Positions 2,271 through 18,382 of a stretch of 31,435 nucleotides of DNA are shown here, piece by piece. The DNA is taken from contig MGRI01000015.1 in assembly GCA_001798105.1 (NCBI GenBank), forward strand, positions 4,761 through 36,195, written 5' to 3'. A program made the translations under genes and the position numbers. Under the pieces are notes generated by a model. The model was not told the DNA's origin. It saw only the letters and a list, made by a program, of their open reading frames with translations, and did no database searches. Position 1 is the stretch's first letter. Every line of letters begins with the position of its first letter. Source of the stretch: Deltaproteobacteria bacterium RIFCSPHIGHO2_02_FULL_40_11. Its GTDB lineage: Bacteria; Bdellovibrionota; JACOXK01; 2-02-FULL-40-11.

Positions 2271-3706
2271 TTTGCATATCTCCTATTCTGGTAATTATTT
2301 TTACATCCATATTTGTCTTACTTTTGGATGCCTTTTTACCCAATGGAGACAAAAAACTCTTAGCCATCATTACCGGCCTTGGGTTGGTCATCGCGGGCGC
2401 CACTTCCTATCTATTATGGGAAGCTCAACCGCAGTCTCTCTTTCATCAAGCTTTGAGAATTGACCAATTTTCAATCTTTTTTAACTTCATTTTTTTATTT
2501 TTAACAGGATTTACCTTGGTGTCAGCCCTACCCAAGTTTGATTCTCAACACCCTTTCCCAGGTGAGTTTTTCTTTTTCTTATTGGCCGCATGTAGTGGCA
2601 TGATGCTCATGGCATCTTCATCCGATTTGATTACATTTTTTATGAGCTTAGAAATCATGAGCTTAACGCTTTATGTTTTAACCGGCCTTTATAAACAACG
2701 CATACAATCCATTGAAGCTTCGCTAAAGTATTTTTTATTGGGTGCCTTTTCGACAGGTTTTTTACTTTTAGGCATTGTTTTTATTTATGCGGCAACCCAT
2801 ACAACAAGTTTTGCAGCCATTGGACATTATCTCATTACATCAGAACACGTCTTACCCCCTATTTTTATGCTGGGCGTAGGGTTACTTCTGACTGGATTTG
2901 CATTTAAAGTTGGCGCGGTGCCCTTTCACATGTGGGTTCCAGATGTATATGAAGGCGCCCCAACAGTCATTACAGGCTACATGGCAACTGCTGTAAAAGC
3001 AGCTGGATTTGCCGTTCTCATTCGGTTCTTTTTGGTCACGCTGCTTCCGATTTTAAATTCATTTTCGACGGTAATGATCACGATTACGATTTTAACCATG
3101 ACTGTTGGCAACTTGGCTGCCCTGATACAAAATAATATCAAACGCATGCTGGCTTATTCCAGCATTGCACATGCAGGGTATATTTTAATCGCCATTTGTA
3201 GCGCCAATAGCCAAAGCTTTAATTTAAGTATCGGAGCCGTTGTGTTTTATCTGGTGGCTTATGGCATGATGACGTTTGGTGCTTTTATTGTATTAAGCGC
3301 CGTGAGCACACACAAACACATTCACACTTTAAAGGATGTCATAGGATTAGGGTTTAAAAATCCATGGCTTGGCGCCTCTTTTTCAGTATTTTTGCTTTCG
3401 CTTACAGGTATTCCTTTGACAGCGGGATTTATTGGAAAATTCTATATTTTTAGTACGGCCCTCAAAGCCGGTTTTTATGGCTTAGCCTTGATGGGAATCT
3501 TAAATAGTCTTCTTGCCGCGTATTATTATTTAAGGGTGATTGTGTACCTGTATATGAAAGATGAGGAAGGCGTTTTAGAAAAACAAACTCCAGAATTTGC
3601 GTGGCATGTGGTGATTGGCATCATGGCGTTTGCGACTTTATACTTTGGGATTTTCCCAACCCCTATCTTGAACTTCATCGAAAAAGCAGTGCTGGCGTTG
3701 TTTTAA
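2267..3706 (+). CDS. nuoN: NADH-quinone oxidoreductase subunit N
   Basis: SIEASLKYFLLG, FKVGAVPFHMWVPDVYEGAP and KRMLAYSSIAHAGY motifs; ATGA overlap with the nuoM stop. Confidence 0.96.
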   Translation: MICISPILVIIFTSIFVLLLDAFLPNGDKKLLAIITGLGLVIAGATSYLLWEAQPQSLFHQALRIDQFSIFFNFIFLFLTGFTLVSALPKFDSQHPFPGEFFFFLLAACSGMMLMASSSDLITFFMSLEIMSLTLYVLTGLYKQRIQSIEASLKYFLLGAFSTGFLLLGIVFIYAATHTTSFAAIGHYLITSEHVLPPIFMLGVGLLLTGFAFKVGAVPFHMWVPDVYEGAPTVITGYMATAVKAAGFAVLIRFFLVTLLPILNSFSTVMITITILTMTVGNLAALIQNNIKRMLAYSSIAHAGYILIAICSANSQSFNLSIGAVVFYLVAYGMMTFGAFIVLSAVSTHKHIHTLKDVIGLGFKNPWLGASFSVFLLSLTGIPLTAGFIGKFYIFSTALKAGFYGLALMGILNSLLAAYYYLRVIVYLYMKDEEGVLEKQTPEFAWHVVIGIMAFATLYFGIFPTPILNFIEKAVLALF

Positions 3707-3711
3707 TAGGA

Positions 3712-5313
3712 TTAAATTTTCCAAGCCACACGCACATCTCCTTTTCGAATCGTCCACTTTTGAATATCAAAAAACTCGAGATATGGAATGGCAAATTTTC
3801 GGCTTAGATTAAAATATGTTTTAATATCCGAAACACAAATCGACTCATTCTTTTGAAAATGGGTCTGAAGGGTTTGACGCACACGCTCTAATTGTACTTT
3901 TGTTAAATACATCGACTTTGGAAGCCGTATGATTTCTTGATTTGCTTCTAGAATTTTTAAAAATTCTTTTTCCAGATTTTGGGCTAAGAAAGGTTCAAAC
4001 GAAGATTCCAGGGGTTTTAGTTTTTCTAAAAATATTTTTGGAACCTGGGGACAGATCTCGAAGAGATCTGTCCCCTTTTTCCTTTTTGCCTGGGGAACAT
4101 CCATAAACCCCGCTAAACTTTGTGGCAAGCGCCCTGTCATATCTGAAAGCGTTTCCAATCGAAGCTCGGGACGCTCTTTGAAAAGTGTTTGGATATACGC
4201 TTGCATTTGGCCTGGATCTTTTTCCAACCAAAACTGTTTTGAAACTGGACTTGCATCAATGATTTGTCCGCCCCCCAAAAGCCGATTTGTTCTTAAAATA
4301 AAACGATCGCCCAAAATAAGCGGTTGGGGAGCAAAAAATTTCAAATAATACGTCATCCCCCTTTTCTTTTTAACCTGAACTTTCGCATGGGAGGTGCCAA
4401 AAAATAGGTCAATGAGGTCAGACCCGGGTCTACGACCGGTAGGTCTGACCCGGGTCTGACCCCATTGGATTTTTGCATACGCTTGGCATGTATCGAGCCT
4501 ACGATTGGGAACCGAAAGCACGTTTCCCACTTGAATCTCGTCTCGATCCACGCCTTTTAAATTCAAGGCCACGCGACTAGGGGCTTTGATCGAAGACACG
4601 CCCTTTCCATAGGCCTCGATACGACGAATTTTTGCTTTCTTGTGACTGGGATAAATTTCCACTTCCTGATCTAAAACAAGTGATCCTGCCATCAAAGTCC
4701 CAGTAACAATGGTTCCAAATCCATGTTTTGAAAAAATACGATCGATTGGAAGATAGTGTAGGCGATTTTCTTCTAAAGGGCTAAAAGATTCATTTAAAAT
4801 TTTAGAAATGCTCTCTTTTAAAACCTCAATTCCTGCAAGCGTTCGAGAAGACACTTCTACAATCGGCGCATTTTCTAAAAAGCTTCCCTTCGTAAATTCT
4901 TTTATTTCTTGAATGCGCGCTTCAATTTCATGTTTCAAAACCAAATCGGTCTTACTTAAAACCACAATGCCCTGCAAAACACCCAGGTATTTTAAAATTT
5001 CAAGATGTTCAATCGTTTGGGTGCAAATTCCTTCTTTTGCACTCACCACAAAGAGCACACACATCATTTGTGTGGCACCCTTTACCATATTTTTAATAAA
5101 ATTTTCGTGGCCTGGGACATCAATGATCCCAATCGTTCCAAAATCCTCCAAATGCAAAGGGGCATATCCCAATTGAATGCTCATGCCCCGTTTTTTTTCT
5201 TCTGGTAAGCGATCTGTACGAAGGCCGGTCAATGCTTGGACCAACTGAGTTTTACCATGGTCTACATGGCCTGCAGTCCCTAAAATGAAAGAACACTTTT
5301 TTAATGAATCCAT
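3712..5313 (-). CDS. selB: Selenocysteine-specific translation elongation factor (compact C-terminal region, two palindrome inserts)
   Basis: GTAGHVDHGKT P-loop, TDRLPEEKKRGMSIQLGYA, DVPGHENFIKNM, IDRIFSKHGFGTIVTGT; C-terminal SECIS-binding winged-helix signature SRKFAIPYLEFFD...TIRKGDVR. Confidence 0.95.
   Translation of the reverse strand: MDSLKKCSFILGTAGHVDHGKTQLVQALTGLRTDRLPEEKKRGMSIQLGYAPLHLEDFGTIGIIDVPGHENFIKNMVKGATQMMCVLFVVSAKEGICTQTIEHLEILKYLGVLQGIVVLSKTDLVLKHEIEARIQEIKEFTKGSFLENAPIVEVSSRTLAGIEVLKESISKILNESFSPLEENRLHYLPIDRIFSKHGFGTIVTGTLMAGSLVLDQEVEIYPSHKKAKIRRIEAYGKGVSSIKAPSRVALNLKGVDRDEIQVGNVLSVPNRRLDTCQAYAKIQWGQTRVRPTGRRPGSDLIDLFFGTSHAKVQVKKKRGMTYYLKFFAPQPLILGDRFILRTNRLLGGGQIIDASPVSKQFWLEKDPGQMQAYIQTLFKERPELRLETLSDMTGRLPQSLAGFMDVPQAKRKKGTDLFEICPQVPKIFLEKLKPLESSFEPFLAQNLEKEFLKILEANQEIIRLPKSMYLTKVQLERVRQTLQTHFQKNESICVSDIKTYFNLSRKFAIPYLEFFDIQKWTIRKGDVRVAWKI
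4047..4075. repeat. 29-bp palindrome GGGGACAGATCTC-GAA-GAGATCTGTCCCC inside selB
   Basis: Perfect 13-bp inverted arms, identical to the arms of the copy at 13232-13260. Confidence 0.9.
4410..4467. repeat. 58-bp palindrome (21-bp arms, 1 mismatch, 16-nt spacer) inside selB
   Basis: CAATGAGGTCAGACCCGGGTC (4410-4430) and GACCCGGGTCTGACCCCATTG (4447-4467); encodes QWGQTRVRPTGRRPGSDLI. Confidence 0.85.
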
Positions 5314-5335
5314 CCTATGCTATTCTATACCCCAA
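5314..5335. promoter_or_regulatory. Putative bidirectional promoter between selB and the TPR gene
   Basis: TG-n-TATTCT on + (5318-5326) overlaps TAGAAT on - (5327-5322); only 22 nt separate the divergent ATGs; no SD on either side. Confidence 0.45.
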
Positions 5336-8158
5336 ATGGATCAAGATACACTGAAAACACTGTTAAAAAAGTATGGTATTTCAAGCACACAAAAATATCA
5401 GATTCGAACAAAAAATCAAACGCTGTCTGGACCCCTGACCATTGAAGAAATTGCAAAAGCCATTATGGAGCAAAAATATTCTGCTCAAGATGACATTTCT
5501 GAATACCCAAAAGAACAATTTAAACCCTTGGCGCAAGAACCCATTTTCTATGACCTTTTATTTTCTATTTTGCAAAAAACGGATCTGACTGAAATTCAAA
5601 AAGAAGAGATCACGCGCGTTTTAGAAGATCCCATGACCGTTCAAAAACTCAAAAAAAGGGGCGCCACCCCTTCTTTATTTGTGCCCAAAAAGAAAAAAAG
5701 TAGGAGAAAAGAAGATACAGGGGCATTAACGATTTTGCCTCCCCCTCCAAAAAAAATTCCCATACGACGAATGGTGTTACTGTTTCTTTTTATCGTTTTT
5801 ATTTTTTCTGTCCTTCTTCTTTTACAAAATACACAACAAAAACCACATCCAGAACAAATAGAACCGGCTCAGAAAACCTATCTTGAAATTTGGATTCCAC
5901 CCCAAACAGTCGCAAGTCCTTCGGTTTTAAAAGCAAAACAAAACTTTGAAGAAGCCCAAAACTTATATCCTAAAGATACTGTCCGATCTTATGAAGAAAG
6001 TATTCAATACTTGAAAGAGGCACTAAAAGCCTACCCAAAAGATGTTTCTTCTCTGTCTTTGCTTGCGAAGTGCTATTTACAACTTTGGGATCTATCGAAA
6101 AAAGATGTGGAATATTTCGAAAAAGTGGATCAAATTATTCAACGCGCACTTGAAATCGACCCTTCTCACCTCCAAGCAAAACAAGCTTTAGTATTTTTAT
6201 ACTTTAGAAAAAAGAACACTCAAAAAGCTACAGAAATACTTTCGCAGCTTAAAACCCAAAACAATTTAGACGGAGAAACATTCTTACTGGAAGGCCTTTT
6301 ATTTTTTGAACAAAATGAACTGAATCAAAGCATTGTCGCGTTTGAAAAAGCCCTGGAAAGATCTCCCGCTTTAGCACAATGCCATTATGCTTTAGGCAAA
6401 ACATATGAAAAACTCAATCAACCTGAAAAAGCTTATGAAATTTATTGGATTGGTCTGAATTTGCATCCGGAACACGCCTTAAGTCGTCTGCAGGCGAGTC
6501 TGATTGATATTCAAACATTTAATCATTTAAAAAAAGCGGAGGGAAATTTAAAAATTGTGACGCAATTTCCATCTCTATTAACAGATGAAAATCTTGCAAC
6601 CGCACACTACCACTTAGGATGGATTTATGAGGAAGAAAAGCAATTTGATTATGCCATTCAACACTATCAAAAAGCCCATGATCTGATGCCGGGAAACACA
6701 ATTTATACCCAAGCCTACGAGCGCCTGGGAGGAGCACAAGCCGTAAAGAGTCTCCCAAAAGATATTCAAATTCATGAAGAATCCCTTTATTTTTTAAATA
6801 TTGGGCGCCGTTATTTAAAAGACAATCGTCTCATTGATGCCAAAGCGCAATTCAAAGCAGCGCTTGAAATTGATGTAAAAAACCACCTGGCCCATTATGA
6901 ATTAGGCCAAATTTCAGAAAAAGAAAACCTTCTTAAAAAGGCCATGGAACATTACCAGCGCGCGCTTTCAATTAAAGCCTCACACATTGATTCTTACGTC
7001 GCTTTGGCAAAAATATATATCCATTATTATGATTTTGATGCAGCACTCCAATACATTTCAAAGGTAAAAAGCATTGAACCCAGGTCTTCTGAAATTTATG
7101 CTTTATCTGGTTTTTACCACAAACAAAAAGGCGATTTTCCAAAAGCGATATTAGAATATCAAAAAGCGGTGCAATTGAATCCAGAACATTATGAAGCATT
7201 ATTTGAATTAGCCAAACTCTACCGCCACACCAAACAATATGCATATGCAGAAAAATATTTTTTTAGAGCACTCACCCTTCAACCCAATGCAGATACCATT
7301 CAAACACAAGTCGCCTTGCTCTATTATGAAAGAGGGTTAAAATCGCAAGCGGTGGATCACCTGAAAAAACTGGTTTCCGCTTATCCATTAAATACGGTGT
7401 ATTTGAATGGACTCTCAAAATTATACCACTTGAATGAAAATTTTCAGTTTTCAAAAGAAACCTATTTAAAATCTTTTGAGTTGGATTCTAAAAATATTGA
7501 AACGCTTGAGGGATTGGCCGAATTGTACCAAGACACAGATGAACTGGAAAAGGCACTCAAAATGTATAAGGAAACTTTGAAACTCGACCCTACAAATGCC
7601 AAATGGTATTTTAAGCGTGCGGCCTTACACACTAAAAGTGGCGATTTACATCAAGCTTTAGATGAGTATAAATTGGCGTCACAAATTAATACAAAGTATC
7701 CCTTGGTACATTTCTATGCCGGAAGAACGGCGCTGATTTTAAAAAATTATCGCCTTGCAGAACAAGAATTTAAAAAAGAAATTGAAATTAATCCTCACTT
7801 AAAGGAACCCTACTTTTTACTGGCCGAATTGTATACACAAGCTCGCCAATTTGAAAATGCGCAAAAAAACTACAAAATGTATATTCGACTCGATCCCAAT
7901 AACGCACAGGCTTATTTTAATTTGGCGCAAATTCATCAAGCTCAAGAACGATTCGAAACAGCCATTGAATTTTATAAAACAGCTTTAGACAAAAACTCAG
8001 ATATGGCCGATGTATACCTACAACTGGGGATTGTTTATCGTCATTTAGATCGAAAAAGTGACGCCATTTGGGCCTTCCAAAATTATCTTCGTGTCAATCC
8101 AGATGCGGACAATATTGAACAAATCAAAAAACTGATCCAACAATTGCGTGGATATTAA
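5336..8158 (+). CDS. Large membrane-anchored TPR-repeat protein with N-terminal GYF_2-like domain
   Basis: Many ~34-aa TPR units (e.g. AHYHLGWIY...AIQHYQKAHDLMP, AYFNLAQIH...AIEFYKTALDKNS); one hydrophobic helix MVLLFLFIVFIFSVLLLL after a basic, Pro-rich linker. Start at ATG 5336 preferred over 5285, which overlaps selB. Confidence 0.85.
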   Translation: MDQDTLKTLLKKYGISSTQKYQIRTKNQTLSGPLTIEEIAKAIMEQKYSAQDDISEYPKEQFKPLAQEPIFYDLLFSILQKTDLTEIQKEEITRVLEDPMTVQKLKKRGATPSLFVPKKKKSRRKEDTGALTILPPPPKKIPIRRMVLLFLFIVFIFSVLLLLQNTQQKPHPEQIEPAQKTYLEIWIPPQTVASPSVLKAKQNFEEAQNLYPKDTVRSYEESIQYLKEALKAYPKDVSSLSLLAKCYLQLWDLSKKDVEYFEKVDQIIQRALEIDPSHLQAKQALVFLYFRKKNTQKATEILSQLKTQNNLDGETFLLEGLLFFEQNELNQSIVAFEKALERSPALAQCHYALGKTYEKLNQPEKAYEIYWIGLNLHPEHALSRLQASLIDIQTFNHLKKAEGNLKIVTQFPSLLTDENLATAHYHLGWIYEEEKQFDYAIQHYQKAHDLMPGNTIYTQAYERLGGAQAVKSLPKDIQIHEESLYFLNIGRRYLKDNRLIDAKAQFKAALEIDVKNHLAHYELGQISEKENLLKKAMEHYQRALSIKASHIDSYVALAKIYIHYYDFDAALQYISKVKSIEPRSSEIYALSGFYHKQKGDFPKAILEYQKAVQLNPEHYEALFELAKLYRHTKQYAYAEKYFFRALTLQPNADTIQTQVALLYYERGLKSQAVDHLKKLVSAYPLNTVYLNGLSKLYHLNENFQFSKETYLKSFELDSKNIETLEGLAELYQDTDELEKALKMYKETLKLDPTNAKWYFKRAALHTKSGDLHQALDEYKLASQINTKYPLVHFYAGRTALILKNYRLAEQEFKKEIEINPHLKEPYFLLAELYTQARQFENAQKNYKMYIRLDPNNAQAYFNLAQIHQAQERFETAIEFYKTALDKNSDMADVYLQLGIVYRHLDRKSDAIWAFQNYLRVNPDADNIEQIKKLIQQLRGY

Positions 8159-8172
8159 AAAAATGTTACCTT
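8144..8172 (+). promoter_or_regulatory. Putative sigma70 promoter of serS
   Basis: TTGCGT (8144-8149), 17 nt, TACCTT (8167-8172) with TG extension; 9 nt before the ATG. Confidence 0.45.
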
Positions 8173-8181
8173 TTTTGAATC

Positions 8182-9453
8182 ATGCTGGACTTAAAATACA
8201 TTTCTGAAAACCTGGATGCGGTCAAAAAAAACCTATCCCTTCGCGGTGAAGACCCTAAAAATCTAGACGACGTTATTCAATTAAACGAACAAAGAAAAAA
8301 ACTCATTTTTGAAAGCGAGCAATTGCGCAAAAAACAAAATGATGTCTCTCAAGAAATCGTAAAATTAAAACAAGAAAAAAAAGACACTTCCAAACTTTTT
8401 TCAGAAATGAAAGAAGTATCCCAAAAGGTAAAAGACTTGCAAACCCAACTTACGGAAATTCAAGGGAATCTGGCACAAAAACTTTTGGTATTGCCGAATC
8501 TTACCCATGCTTCTGTCCCACAGGGAAAAACTGCCCAAGATAATAAAGTGATCCGAACCTGGGGGAAAATTCCAAAATTTGAGTTCACCCCGAAAGATCA
8601 CCAAGCTTTAGGCGAAAAACTTGGAATTTTAGACATGGAAAGGGCTTCCAAAATTACAGGCGCCCGGTTTTCTTTACTGAAAGGCATGGGCGCAAAACTA
8701 GAGCGTGCTTTAATTCAGTTTATGTTAGACCTCAATACCCAAGAAGGAAAATATACTGAAATTTTCCCGCCTTTAATGGTGAATACCAAGGCCATGGTGG
8801 GGACGGGACAACTTCCCAAATTCGAAGCAGATGCTTTTAAAGTGCAAGACACAAAATATTTTTTAATTCCAACAGCTGAGGTTCCACTTACAAATATTTA
8901 TCGAGAAGAAATTCTAGAAAAAACGGACCTTCCTATTTATATGACAGCCTATACACCTTGCTTTCGAAGTGAAGCGGGATCGCATGGAAAAGATGTCAGA
9001 GGCCTCATTCGCCAGCATCAGTTTAATAAGGTGGAAATTGTAAAAATTGTTGAACCTGAAACCTCTTATGACGAACTGGAAAAACTATTAGCCGATGCAG
9101 AAAAGATCTTACAAAAATTAGAACTTCCATATCGCGTAGTAGCGCTGTGTACAGGCGATATCGGCTTTGGGGCAGCCAAAACGTATGACATTGAAGTTTG
9201 GCTTCCCAGTCAAAACTGTTATCGGGAGATTTCTTCATGTACAAACTTTGAAGATTTTCAAGCAAGACGGATGAACTTAAAATATAAACCTGATTCCAAC
9301 GCAAAACCCCGTTTTCCACATACACTCAATGGCTCGGCGTTGGCGGTGGGCAGAACCTGGTTAGCCATTTTAGAGAATTTTCAGATGAAAGACGGATCTA
9401 TTCAGATTCCAAAAGTTCTTCAGTCTTACATGGGGACAGATTTAATCAAATGA
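8182..9453 (+). CDS. serS: Seryl-tRNA synthetase
   Basis: N-terminal coiled-coil arm; [53 protein letters not shown] and [12 protein letters not shown] motifs. Confidence 0.98.
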
Positions 9454-9456
9454 TCG

Positions 9457-9543
9457 GGAGAGGTGGCAGAGCGGTTGAATGCGGCGGTCTTGAAAACCGT
9501 TAGACCCGAAAGGGTCTCGGGAGTTCGAATCTCCCCCTCTCCG
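9457..9543 (+). tRNA. tRNA-Ser (anticodon TGA), long variable arm, no encoded CCA
   Basis: Acceptor GGAGAGG/CCTCTCC + G73; anticodon arm GCGGT-CT TGA AA-ACCGT; GTTCGAATC T-loop. Confidence 0.96.
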
Positions 9544-10756: not shown

Positions 10757-11296
10757 TTAATCAAGCGATGCTAGAACTTTAAGCATTTCTTTGGGGGTGG
10801 GGCGATCATCAGGTCTTTCACCGCGAAATACATAAACCAATTCCCCGGCACTGTTTACAATAAAATCTCCGCCCAATTGATACACATCTTCTTGCGTAGA
10901 CTGTATTTTTTTTCCTTGAATTGCATATTTTGTATACTGAAAAATCGTTTTGGGATGAAAAATGTGGAAAAATCCAGCACGTTTTAACCCCATGGCATGG
11001 TAAAATTTTCGATCGGTATCGGAATACAAATAAAACTGCCCGCTGATATTTTTCTGATAGGTTTTTAACTGTTCAATCGGTGTAAAAGAAATGACTCGAA
11101 TATCGGCATGATAGTTTTGAAACTCAGAAATGTGTTTTTGCACCTCGACCAGGTGCTCTTGGCAAGATAGTCAAGCCAAGTGACGCAAAAAAATTAAAAC
11201 TTGCGGCCTACCCAGAAAAGAAAGTGTGTTTACTTTCCTTCCCTCCAGATCGTAGAGCGTAATGGCCGGGATTTTTTCCCCTTTTTTTAGCCCCAT
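10757..11296 (-). CDS. AhpC/TSA (peroxiredoxin-like) selenoprotein, 179 aa, Sec at codon 42 in a UxxC motif
   Basis: Manual translation from ATG 11296: MGLKKGEKIPAITLYDLEGRKVNTLSFLGRPQVLIFLRHLA-TGA-LSCQEHLVEVQKHISEF..., continuous with the 128-aa ORF of the track; C-terminal QLGGDFIV...PDDRP; AAGGT SD-like element upstream; SECIS-like hairpin follows the TGA; selB is in the same window. Confidence 0.88.
11140..11156 (-). promoter_or_regulatory. Bacterial SECIS-like hairpin
   Basis: Minus strand GCACCT-GGTCG-AGGTGC: perfect 6-bp stem, loop starts with G and begins 21 nt after the TGA at 11173-11171. Confidence 0.75.
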
Positions 11297-12053
11297 TTTC
11301 AAAAATACCTTTCTTTTTTTGTAATTCTTCCTGAGTTAACTGAATTTGTAAAGGACTTAATGGGGTGGTTGTTAAAAGTTTTCCCAATGCATACAACCGA
11401 AACCGATCCATTCCCCAGTATGTTTGAGATAAATGATTTTGATCCACACCATTTCTTTTCAGGATAAACACATCTGGGAAATAAGAAATAGCGTATTGCG
11501 AGGCCATTCGAAGCCATAAATCATAATCTTCACAGGCGGGCAAGTCTTCATCAAATCCGCCCACTTTATCAAAAACACTTGGGTGGATCATTACAGAAGA
11601 AGCGCTTATGATACATAAAGGCAGGCAGTATTTAAAAATATCGCCTGAATATTTCTGGTGTTTTTTGCTGGGATTTACTCTTTTTCCAGATCGATACCAA
11701 ATTTCGTTCGTATAGGAAATCTTTGTTTTTTGCTGATCTGTTTTTGCCAATTGTTCTTCTAATTTTTTAGGCGTCCAGAGGTCATCTGAATCTAAAAAAC
11801 AAATCCATTCTCCTTGTGCTAAACGAATTCCCAAATTCCGAGCCGCGCTAATCCCTTTATTTTCTTGAAAAACGACTTTTATCGAAGGATACGTTCTTTG
11901 AAGATATTCCGTTGTGCCATCGGTGGAACCATCATCAATCACAATGAGTTCATAATCCAAATACGTTTGCTGTAAAACACTTTGAATGGCTTCTTCTACA
12001 ATCGATTTACGATTATAGGTACAAATAATGACACTAACTTTGCAGTTCTTCAC
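11208..12053 (-). CDS. Glycosyltransferase family 2
   Basis: VSVIICTYNR, LIVIDDGSTD, GISAARNLG, FLDSDD and EDYDLWLR motifs; GTG start overlapping the upstream gene's end. Confidence 0.92.
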   Translation of the reverse strand: MKNCKVSVIICTYNRKSIVEEAIQSVLQQTYLDYELIVIDDGSTDGTTEYLQRTYPSIKVVFQENKGISAARNLGIRLAQGEWICFLDSDDLWTPKKLEEQLAKTDQQKTKISYTNEIWYRSGKRVNPSKKHQKYSGDIFKYCLPLCIISASSVMIHPSVFDKVGGFDEDLPACEDYDLWLRMASQYAISYFPDVFILKRNGVDQNHLSQTYWGMDRFRLYALGKLLTTTPLSPLQIQLTQEELQKKKGIFENGAKKRGKNPGHYALRSGGKESKHTFFSG

Positions 12054-13971
12054 GGTTTTTAAATTCTTCTAAGGATTCTGGATTCGAAATTGCACTTTTG
12101 TTTCGAACCGGCTCGTTATGAATGACATTTTGGACCGCAAGCTCAACTTTTTTTCCACTCATGGTATAGGGAATGTCTTTAACGACTAAGATTTTTTCTG
12201 GCACATGCCGGGGACTTGCATTTTCGCGAAGCGAGGATCTTATTTTATCTCCTAAAGTTTGGTTTAAGACGTGCCCTTCTTTTAAAACCACAAATAAAAT
12301 AATTCGAACATCCTCTTTCCATTTTTGAGAAACGACAATACTATCTTTAATTTCTGGTAGCTTTTCGATTTGCCGATAAATTTCTGCTGTACCAATGCGA
12401 ACACCGCCTGGGTTTAACGTAGCATCTGATCTACCATACACAACCACGCCACCTTCTTTTGTAATTGTAATAAAATCGCCATGACGCCAAATATGGGGAT
12501 ACGTTTCAAAGTAGGCTTCATGGTACTTTTTACCTTCTGGATCATCCCAAAAACCGATGGGCATCGAGGGAAAAGGTGCGCTACAAACCAGTTCCCCTTT
12601 TTCTTCTAAAACAGGCCTCCCATTTTCATCGAAGGCTTCGACTTTCATGCCCAAACCCAGACATTGAATTTGCTCTTCGTAGACAGGCAAAAGTGGATTT
12701 CCAAGCATAAAACAAGAAATAATATCCGTCCCCCCAGAAATGGAAGAAAGCTGAAGATCTGCTTTTATATTTTCATACACCCATCGGAAATTTTCTTTTG
12801 TAAGAGGTGCCCCTGTTGAAAGAATGGTTTTTAAGTGAGGCATCTTCGCTATCTTTTTAGGAACAATGCCTTCTTTTTGGCAAGCCGATAAATACTTTGG
12901 ACTGGCTCCAAAAACCGTAATTTTTTCAGCTTCAATATCACGCCACCGAATGCCTAAATCAGGATAAGCGACACTTCCTTCTGATAAAACAACCGTGGCT
13001 CCCACAGTTAAAGAACTCACCAACCAGTTCCACATCATCCATCCACAGGTTGTCACATAACAAATGCGATCTTCACGCTTTAAGTCTGTATGCAAAATTA
13101 ATTCTTTTAAATGTTGGAGGAGCGTTCCGCCTTGCCCATGGACAATACACTTGGGAACACCTGTGGTTCCAGAAGAAAACATAATATAAAGTGGATGATC
13201 AAAGGGGAGCTGTACAAAATCGATTTCGGATGGGGACAGATCTCTTTGAGATCTGTCCCCATTTAAAAATGTTTCCCAGGTTCCACCCTTTCCAAGATAG
13301 GGGACCTCGATAACTTTTTGAATCGAAGGTATTTGGCGAACAATTTTTTGAACTTTACTCTGACATTCAAATTTTTTTCCATTGTAATAATATCCATCTA
13401 CCGTAAATAAGACTTTGGGTTTAATTTGCCCAAATCGATCTAAAACCCCTTGTACGCCAAAATCTGGGGAACAGGAAGACCAAATGGCTCCCAAACTATT
13501 GGTGGCGAGCATCGCAATAACAGTCTCTGGAATATTGGGCAGATATCCGCATACGCGATCATTTTTTTGAATGCCCACCTTTTTTAAGGCTCTGGCACAT
13601 TGGGCAACTTTTAAATACAATTCTTTATAGGTTAAATATTGAGGTTTTCTCGCTTCTCCAAGCGCAATTAAGGCCAAAGAATCATCTCGAAATCGAAGTA
13701 GGTTTTCTGAAAAATTAAGTTTTGCGCCTAAAAACCATTTTGTGCCTGGCATTTTAGGTTCCCCCATGGCCTTTTCATAGGAAGAAGCTTTCAGATTAAA
13801 AAATTTCCACAAAGACGCCCAAAAAACTGAAGGCTCTTTGATAGACCAAGCATATAGGGGGTCATAGGTATGAAAATTCAGATCATAGGTTTCTTTTAAA
13901 AATGAAAAATATTTTTGGAAATTACTCTTTTCGATACGCTCTTGAGAAGGTTTCCAAAGCGGTTTTTTCAT
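12034..13971 (-). CDS. Acetoacetate--CoA ligase (acetoacetyl-CoA synthetase)
   Basis: PLWKPS N-terminus, QLPFDHPLYIMFSSGTTGVPKCIVHGQGG, TTCGWMMWNWL and VYGRSDATLNPGGVRIGTAEIY motifs. Start at ATG 13971 preferred over TTG 14007. Confidence 0.93.
   Translation of the reverse strand: MKKPLWKPSQERIEKSNFQKYFSFLKETYDLNFHTYDPLYAWSIKEPSVFWASLWKFFNLKASSYEKAMGEPKMPGTKWFLGAKLNFSENLLRFRDDSLALIALGEARKPQYLTYKELYLKVAQCARALKKVGIQKNDRVCGYLPNIPETVIAMLATNSLGAIWSSCSPDFGVQGVLDRFGQIKPKVLFTVDGYYYNGKKFECQSKVQKIVRQIPSIQKVIEVPYLGKGGTWETFLNGDRSQRDLSPSEIDFVQLPFDHPLYIMFSSGTTGVPKCIVHGQGGTLLQHLKELILHTDLKREDRICYVTTCGWMMWNWLVSSLTVGATVVLSEGSVAYPDLGIRWRDIEAEKITVFGASPKYLSACQKEGIVPKKIAKMPHLKTILSTGAPLTKENFRWVYENIKADLQLSSISGGTDIISCFMLGNPLLPVYEEQIQCLGLGMKVEAFDENGRPVLEEKGELVCSAPFPSMPIGFWDDPEGKKYHEAYFETYPHIWRHGDFITITKEGGVVVYGRSDATLNPGGVRIGTAEIYRQIEKLPEIKDSIVVSQKWKEDVRIILFVVLKEGHVLNQTLGDKIRSSLRENASPRHVPEKILVVKDIPYTMSGKKVELAVQNVIHNEPVRNKSAISNPESLEEFKNREELQS
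13230..13262. repeat. 33-bp palindrome ATGGGGACAGATCTC-TTT-GAGATCTGTCCCCAT inside the acetoacetate--CoA ligase gene
   Basis: Perfect 15-bp inverted arms; same 13-bp core as 4047-4075; encodes NGDRSQRDLSP. Confidence 0.9.
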
Positions 13972-14059
13972 AAGGGTATTCGTAGCGTACTCATTTTTGA
14001 GACGCAAGGAAGATGTTTGACTTGGAATCTTATGTCATCTATGAAATAAAGGATCGTAT

Positions 14060-14150
14060 GGAGAGGTGGCCGAGATGGCCGAAGGCGGCGGTTTGCTAAA
14101 CCGTTATACGGTTAATAGCCGTATCGGGAGTTCGAATCTCCCCCTCTCCG
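14060..14150 (+). tRNA. tRNA-Ser (anticodon GCT), long variable arm, no encoded CCA
   Basis: GGAGAGG/CCTCTCC acceptor; GCGGT-TT GCT AA-ACCGT; variable arm ATACGG-TTAATAG-CCGTAT. Confidence 0.96.
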
Positions 14151-14196
14151 AATTTTACGATTGATTATGGAGGCATTGCTCAATTCATGAACTTAT

Positions 14197-17839: not shown

Positions 17840-18296
17840 TCAAGATACATTTTGGATGGAAAAGGCGTTAACGCAAGCCCAAAATGCCTTTGAAAAAAAT
17901 GAAGTTCCAATTGGAGCAGTCATCGTTCAGAACAATATGGTACTTTCTGAAGCTTATAATCTCCGAGAAACAACCCAAGATCCCCTTGGGCATGCTGAAA
18001 TGAGGGCCATTCAAATGGCTTCAAAACAATTAAATACTTGGCGACTGATAGATTCTACATTATATGTTACGGTTGAACCATGCTTGATGTGTGCAGGGGC
18101 TATTTTGCAATCGCGCATTTCTCGTATTGTATATGGCTGCAAAGATAAAAAAGCTGGCGCTGTAGATTCGCTTTATCACACGCTTTCAGACGATAGACTC
18201 AATCATCGTGTAAATATCACTTCAGGCGTGTTGGAACATGCATGTAGACATCTCATGCAAACGTTCTTTGAAAAATTAAGAACTGAGCCCGTTTAG
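17820..18296 (+). CDS. tadA: tRNA adenosine(34) deaminase
   Basis: [28 protein letters not shown] and NHRV motifs. Confidence 0.95.
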
Positions 18297-18382
18297 GAGA
18301 GGTGTCCGAGTGGTTGAAGGAGCACGCCTGGAAAGCGTGTATGCGGGAAACCGCATCGAGGGTTCGAATCCCTCCCTCTCCG
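18296..18382 (+). tRNA. tRNA-Ser (anticodon GGA), no encoded CCA
   Basis: GGAGAGG/CCTCTCC acceptor; CACGC-CT GGA AA-GCGTG; variable arm ATGCGG-GAAA-CCGCAT. Confidence 0.96.

Follow-up and report, generated by a model that had tools for sequence, protein, structure and literature searches.

A probable selenocysteine-decoded gene for a SelL-related redox protein, annotated as a truncated AhpC/TSA family fragment, in a groundwater bacterial lineage

Reading frame, in-frame UGA and downstream hairpin

The window, the whole stretch of 31,435 nucleotides analysed here from contig MGRI01000015.1 of Deltaproteobacteria bacterium RIFCSPHIGHO2_02_FULL_40_11, contains a minus-strand reading frame that runs from an ATG at 11296 to a TAA at 10759-10757 and holds a single in-frame stop, a TGA at 11173-11171. 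When this TGA is taken as selenocysteine (Sec, U), the frame (10757..11296, minus strand) encodes 179 aa plus a stop, and the translation, matches to NF040769 and Pfam and an AlphaFold model point to a SelL-related/PRX-like2 redox protein of thioredoxin fold. The putative Sec codon (11171..11173, minus strand), which is TGA or Cys at the same column in homologs, would specify U42, the first residue of a U42-L-S-C45 redox motif (codons 11162..11173, minus strand) that is recognizable in the sequence, in the alignment and in the model. The residues around it read VLIFLRHLA-U-LSC-QEHLVEVQK, and the sequence spanning U42 is LRHLA-U-LSCQEHLVEVQK.

The listing of open reading frames under translation table 11 yields only a 128-aa ORF for this locus (10757..11143, minus strand), which starts at a GTG at 11143, and a public protein collection holds the same 128-aa product together with truncations of 124-130 aa from relatives, named 'AhpC/TSA family protein'. 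The original prediction had claimed that this ORF extends through a single TGA to the ATG at 11296, that the TGA lies at the first position of a CxxC-type motif, and that standard annotation cuts short a 179-aa selenoenzyme; the coordinates and translation, the motif as read, and the presence of the 128-aa version in both the ORF listing and the protein collection agree with these claims. The fact that gene callers report the 128-aa ORF here and in relatives would also fit a real stop at the TGA, with the locus being either a decayed gene or a 41-codon leader followed by an AhpC-TSA_2 fragment of 128 aa that begins with the GTG at 11143, all the more as TGA is a common stop in the source genome. 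However, the 128-aa product would be devoid of strands beta1-3 and of the whole redox motif, and its GTG start falls within the stem of a conserved hairpin.

This hairpin, a bacterial SECIS element as judged by folding and conservation, lies at 11140..11156 (minus strand), within the codons for E-H-L-V-E-V-Q, and consists of a 6-bp stem, GCACCU/AGGUGC, and a 5-nt loop, GGUCG. Its arms (GCACCT at 11156-11151 and AGGTGC at 11145-11140) pair perfectly around the loop (GGTCG at 11150-11146), and it begins 14 nt past the TGA, the loop beginning 20 nt past the A of the TGA. Folded alone the hairpin has an energy of -10.4 kcal/mol (z = -2.96), equalled by 1 of 200 shuffles, and its 61-nt context gives z = -3.1, none of 200 shuffles being as stable. 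The published consensus for bacterial SECIS elements comprises a loop of 3-9 nt, a stem of 4-16 bp, a G in the first two loop positions, a distance of 16-37 nt from UGA to loop and a minimum free energy of -7.5 kcal/mol or lower (PMC13188914), and the window hairpin, with its 5-nt loop, 6-bp stem, 20-nt spacing and -10.4 kcal/mol, lies within all of these limits. Both the perfect GCACCT-GGTCG-AGGTGC hairpin downstream of the TGA and its bacterial SECIS geometry had been predicted, and they stand in arms, loop, position and every element of the consensus. Apart from three matches to unrelated families at chance level, a scan of 10900-11400 against Rfam with E values up to 10 returned nothing, and no SECIS family among them, a null result that is uninformative about a bacterial SECIS.

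The hairpin is retained, with its offset unchanged, in each of the Sec-form homologs checked, and in one of them a C:G pair has become U:A, a compensatory change. Across a set of 50 different Sec-form sequences, 98.3% of the cells of the 6-bp stem are paired, with covariation from G:C to C:G in six sequences and from C:G to U:A in one; none of 500 shuffles matched the observed stem pairing or covariation score, and all slid controls stayed below 46%. Changes on both sides occur at only two of the six stem pairs, and since the stem overlaps codons of a conserved helix, part of its conservation could be exerted at the protein level. Two other folds were considered and rejected, namely an alternative 13-bp fold favoured by RNAfold in actinobacterial copies, which is paired in 75% of cells and does no better than shuffles, and a UGA-enclosing stem, CUUGGC...GCCAAG, whose paired cells amount to 55.6%, less than the mean of the shuffles, and which is specific to the window rather than conserved.

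Selenocysteine and cysteine forms among relatives

When 40 related genomes were searched in six frames, seven full-length homologs at 39-48% identity were identified, six with one in-frame TGA and one, in genome G002, with none in the gene; a match in G007, truncated by the end of its contig, was kept apart. In the six homologs of the same class, with identities of 39-49%, the TGA always lies in LRHL(A/M)-U-x-x-C, and in the G002 ortholog the Sec column holds a Cys (TGT), in LRHLM-C-LSC. Homologs had been expected to carry C or U opposite the TGA, as they do, and the conservation proposed for the 41 codons upstream of the TGA was likewise recovered, given that in all relatives the gene starts at an ATG 39-46 codons before U, with M1, P10, G19, I35 and L37-L40 invariant. 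Protein-level conservation of these 41 codons in relatives of only 39-49% identity, and the retention of TGA at this single column by seven genomes of the class and across many phyla, argue against a real stop, which we consider very unlikely.

In the G002 ortholog the hairpin is gone, the peptide QEHLVEVQK being replaced by QEHLHQVKA, and no selA, selB or tRNA-Sec was detected above cut-offs in this genome, which is 92% complete; in the Sec-form genome G004, selA, selB and tRNA-Sec are all present. Cys forms such as that of G002 and the eight above-cut-off Cys members of the phylum scan described below would be compatible with a sequencing or assembly error in a TGT or TGC codon of the window gene. 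Nevertheless, the TGA recurs independently, and in every case together with the hairpin, in six further genomes of the class and dozens of unrelated assemblies, and the Cys ortholog is without the hairpin, so that such an error is scarcely credible.

The Cys-form ortholog of G002, the closest one (CLSC, at L064:3001-3528, also L014), lies between the same ligase and nuclease genes as the window gene. A different Cys form, CLPC, in a Solirubrobacteraceae MAG (L076:3037) has a 5-bp hairpin-like remnant, CACCU...AGGUG, at the SECIS position, and may represent a recent Sec-to-Cys conversion.

The distribution of the family was surveyed in a scan that took a single genome for each GTDB species and gave 74 loci in about seven phyla. 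According to record titles, these belong to 'Deltaproteobacteria' groundwater MAGs, Planctomycetota, Binatia, Thermodesulfobacteriota, Acidobacteriota, Actinomycetota (including cultured Pseudonocardia and Modestobacter), Chloroflexi and one Bacteroidales MAG. The motif column holds TGA in 68 of the 74 loci, a proportion that overstates the frequency of the Sec form, because the sample is biased by motif and one of the two search patterns (CQEHLVEVQ-like) is encoded by the SECIS itself. When 301 genomes of the phylum were scanned with the HMM, without this bias, NF040769 members above the cut-off turned up in 15, of which 7 have TGA and 8 have Cys, and all 7 TGA members belong to the same class as the window (families f1 and f2).

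The hairpin GCACCU-N(3-5)-AGGUGC, which encodes Q-E-H-L-V-E/Q-V-Q, is retained across about seven phyla (record titles). Because the SelB proteins of these phyla necessarily differ, and because the hairpin has decayed in the Cys ortholog of G002, where Sec machinery was not detected, it is conceivable, although we regard it as rather unlikely, that this family has its SECIS fused to the active-site helix as a self-contained, horizontally mobile 'Sec cassette' able to serve any bacterial SelB. On the same reading, the window protein could, in groundwater lineages with small genomes, be one of just two proteins that the entire Sec machinery is kept for.

The original prediction also described the gene as apparently co-transcribed with a glycosyltransferase and an acetoacetate-CoA ligase, and held this context to be unusual. 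Both genes do lie upstream on the same strand, the GT2 glycosyltransferase, which we treat as context only, at 11208..12053 (minus strand; Pfam Glycos_transf_2, 129.9 bits) and the acetoacetate-CoA ligase at 12034..14007 (minus strand; ORF listing and profile match), but this arrangement is not conserved in the nearest relatives. The GT2 ORF and the selenoprotein gene share 89 nt (11208-11296), the start codon of the latter falling within the 3' part of the former; for genes on the same strand this overlap is unusually long, and it counts against the selenoprotein reading. The GT2 ORF encodes 281 aa, and its Pfam matches stop near residue 196.

In G002 the acetoacetate-CoA ligase and a downstream EEP-family nuclease directly flank the Cys ortholog, with no GT2, and among the nearest relatives this flanking was seen only there, which indicates local synteny within the window's family of genomes. 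The neighbours in the nearest Sec-form relatives are instead MlaC, an SDR, a Pyr_redox_2 flavoprotein, IscS/IscU and GreA. The flavoprotein gene of G004 (L063:185-1612, plus strand) encodes a 475-aa FAD/NAD(P) pyridine-nucleotide-disulfide oxidoreductase with Pyr_redox_2 and Pyr_redox_dim domains, and its stop overlaps the selenoprotein start (L063:1609) by 4 nt, which looks like translational coupling; flavoprotein disulfide reductases of this type are a possible class of reductase partner. A GT2 gene was also found directly upstream on the same strand, with 25-28% identity, in nine loci of Gemmataceae/Limnoglobus type (L082-L085, L088, L100, L106, L113 and L114; GT2 at about 1910-2720, match at 3001), but since GT2 genes are very common this recurrence is only a lead and perhaps due to chance. 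Given that neither the GT2 nor the ligase is kept in the nearest relatives, no function can be deduced from this context, and among the relatives compared there is no conserved operon that would define a substrate.

Selenocysteine machinery and genetic code of the source genome

The gene for SelB, the Sec-specific elongation factor expected to bind the hairpin, is located at 3712..5313 (minus strand), as assigned by TIGR00475 (289.9 bits; cut-off, 242.25) and by the Pfam domains GTP_EFTU and SelB-wing_3 (residues 485-529). It is 5.4 kb from the selenoprotein gene, as had been predicted. Together with genes for a 957-aa TPR protein, serS and tRNA-Ser(UGA), selB forms a group at 3712-9543, and the window contains three tRNA-Ser genes in all (9457-9543, 14059-14151 and 18296-18382).

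Elsewhere in the source genome there are selD (380.2 bits) and, on contig C62, a tRNA-Sec (56.2 bits with Rfam; called SeC with anticodon tca (UCA) by ARAGORN). The expectation that the genome would encode selA, selC and selD was thus borne out for selD and for the tRNA; selA was not found, there being no TIGR00474 match in the assembly, which consists of 115 contigs and is 83.57% complete. With this degree of completeness a missing selA is weak evidence against Sec, and selA is present above cut-off in six of eight genomes of the same family and in two of three of the same class.

The absence of selA from the assembly could be taken in favour of a real stop, and also of read-through of the UGA without Sec, that is, by a near-cognate Trp or Cys tRNA, by an alternative genetic code, or with Ser inserted via tRNA(Sec) if selA had been lost. 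An alternative code is ruled out by stop-codon usage, since TGA closes 255 of 897 ATG-initiated ORFs of at least 250 aa (28%); TGA is therefore an ordinary stop in the source genome, which uses the standard code and neither code 4 nor code 25. Against the other forms of non-Sec read-through, the genome retains dedicated selB, selD and tRNA-Sec genes and a member of a second known selenoprotein family, Sec-form genomes of the same family do have selA, and a conserved hairpin of SelB type would have no role in plain read-through. We therefore regard non-Sec read-through as highly improbable.

The candidate second selenoprotein gene emerged when the genome was crudely scanned for a TGA combined with a redox motif and a hairpin; of the 42 hits so obtained, seven of the more promising were translated. 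Among those examined, only the window gene and a gene for a UshA-like protein with a PCGU motif hold up; a Tgt candidate proved to be a spurious upstream extension, and five others had no similarity recognizable by eye. The UshA-like gene (C14:2675-4552, plus strand, equivalent to L137:1176-3053; TGA at C14:2819) encodes 625 aa with a lipoprotein-like N-terminus, a UshA-type metallophosphoesterase containing P-C-G-U and a C-terminal multihaem cytochrome c with several CxxCH. It matches NF041198, 'UshA-like (seleno)protein', with 356.8 bits (cut-off, 275), and a 6-bp hairpin whose loop starts with GGUC begins 15 nt into the stretch that opens with the TGA. This gene is an independent sign of UGA-to-Sec decoding in the source organism.

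Taken together, the recoding signals, the Sec/Cys pairing among relatives, the Sec machinery, the second selenoprotein, the fold and the family membership indicate, from sequence-based evidence, that 10757-11296 is very probably a genuine Sec-decoded gene of the SelL-related/PRX-like2 (AhpC-TSA_2) family. In the mechanism that we propose, SelB-GTP carrying Sec-tRNA(Sec) would dock on the GGUCG-loop hairpin downstream of the UGA, and the UGA at codon 42 would be decoded as selenocysteine instead of stop.

For annotation, this would mean that genes deposited as 'AhpC/TSA family' fragments of 124-130 aa without an active site are restored to complete redox enzymes by UGA read-through. It would also mean that a groundwater lineage with a 1.7-Mb genome has kept a functional Sec system that serves at least two proteins. 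The source genome and G002 offer a natural Sec/Cys pair in the same synteny, which can be used to ask what Sec confers.

Fold, redox motif and comparison with known systems

The read-through protein matches NF040769, 'SelL-related redox protein', with 142.3 bits (curated cut-off, 120) over residues 8-174, corresponding to positions 2-172 of a profile of 173; when the genome was searched in six frames the match scored 133.3 bits. Its Pfam matches are AhpC-TSA_2 (PF13911, PRX-like2; residues 56-160, 54.5 bits with a gathering threshold of 27), AhpC-TSA (46.6 bits) and Redoxin (31.4 bits), and the score with NF006960, an equivalog model used to judge membership in the canonical peroxiredoxins (PrxQ/Bcp), is 29.6 bits (cut-off, 140).

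Modelling with AlphaFold on eight family sequences gave a pLDDT of 86.5 and a pTM of 0.85, and in the model U42 follows the strand formed by residues 32-37 and just precedes the helix of residues 43-54. As modelled, U42-x-x-C45 is found where strand beta-3 ends and the first long helix starts, which is where thioredoxin-like oxidoreductases have their CxxC motif. The nearest PDB structures are of the Bcp/PrxQ/AhpE type (TM 0.7-0.85 for Bcp/PrxQ), the nearest Swiss-Prot models are AAED1, PRXL2C and prostamide/PGF synthase (TM 0.79-0.83, rmsd 2.3-3.0), and in a profile search of PDB sequences 9us9 was the sole solved chain matched across residues 18-177.

Columns 42 and 45 of the [U/C]xxC motif are invariant in the alignment of relatives (A1). 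In the PDB profile alignment C45 stands opposite the conserved Cys of Aeropyrum Bcp, which we take to be the peroxidatic Cys, and U42 opposite the residue three before it. The PxxxTxxC signature is replaced by R38-H-L-A-U42-L-S-C45, R38 occupying the place of Pro and U the Thr column (2cx3 alignment), and with this signature lost and UxxC present the motif is thioredoxin-like rather than peroxiredoxin-like, although the fold is peroxiredoxin-like. There is a single Sec in place of a UxxU pair, as only one TGA is in frame and the second position of the motif is TGC, a Cys codon. Most likely, Sec42 would be the nucleophile that attacks an oxidised substrate, either a disulfide, a sulfenate or a peroxide, Cys45 would resolve the adduct as an internal selenenylsulfide, and a cellular thiol reductant would recycle the selenenylsulfide.

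The window protein shares with peroxiredoxin Q/Bcp the peroxiredoxin fold (TM values of up to 0.85 when normalized by target) and matches Pfam AhpC-TSA, but it differs from these enzymes in the motif residues just described, being without PxxxTxxC. PRXL2B (prostamide/PGF synthase), PRXL2C and plant AAED1 are its best full-length structural matches and share Pfam AhpC-TSA_2; these proteins are eukaryotic, have Cys in place of Sec and are only 19-25% identical, and nothing observed here points to a shared substrate.

Eukaryotic selenoprotein L (SelL) has a UxxU motif that forms a diselenide, and its SECIS is of the eukaryotic type, in the 3'-UTR. With SelL the window protein shares a thioredoxin fold of PRX-like2 type and a Sec in the motif at the CxxC position, as judged by the name of NF040769 and by the structural neighbours, but its Sec is single (UxxC) and its SECIS is bacterial and in frame. 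A text search of the literature on 'SelL-related' returned nothing relevant; a passage of PMC2398784 cites the eukaryotic SelL (Shchedrina et al. 2007) as 'a Prx-like protein'.

Bacterial UxxC selenoproteins termed 'Prx-like' have been catalogued since 2004-2005 (Sargasso Sea, PMC1088965; GOS, PMC2398784; table in PMC13188914). They are described as distant peroxiredoxin homologs in which a thioredoxin-like UxxC replaces the TxxU of Sec-peroxiredoxins, with a presumed thiol-disulfide redox function (PMC1088965; PMC2398784; PMC13188914). The window protein has the same peroxiredoxin-like fold and UxxC as these survey proteins (PMC1088965), and could be assigned to no specific numbered subfamily (Prx-like 1, 2 or 3) of PMC1088965, PMC2398784 or PMC13188914. 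Selenoproteins of cd02970 (PRX-like2) are listed with UxxS (PMC13188914), whereas the window protein has UxxC.

The closest correspondence is with the SelL-related redox proteins of NF040769, from which we found no distinguishing feature, the length, the [U/C]xxC motif and the fold being the same. This family is already curated and widespread, so the gene is less novel than the original prediction implied; it reveals neither a new mechanism nor a new family, and is the rescue of a mis-annotated member of the curated NF040769 family.
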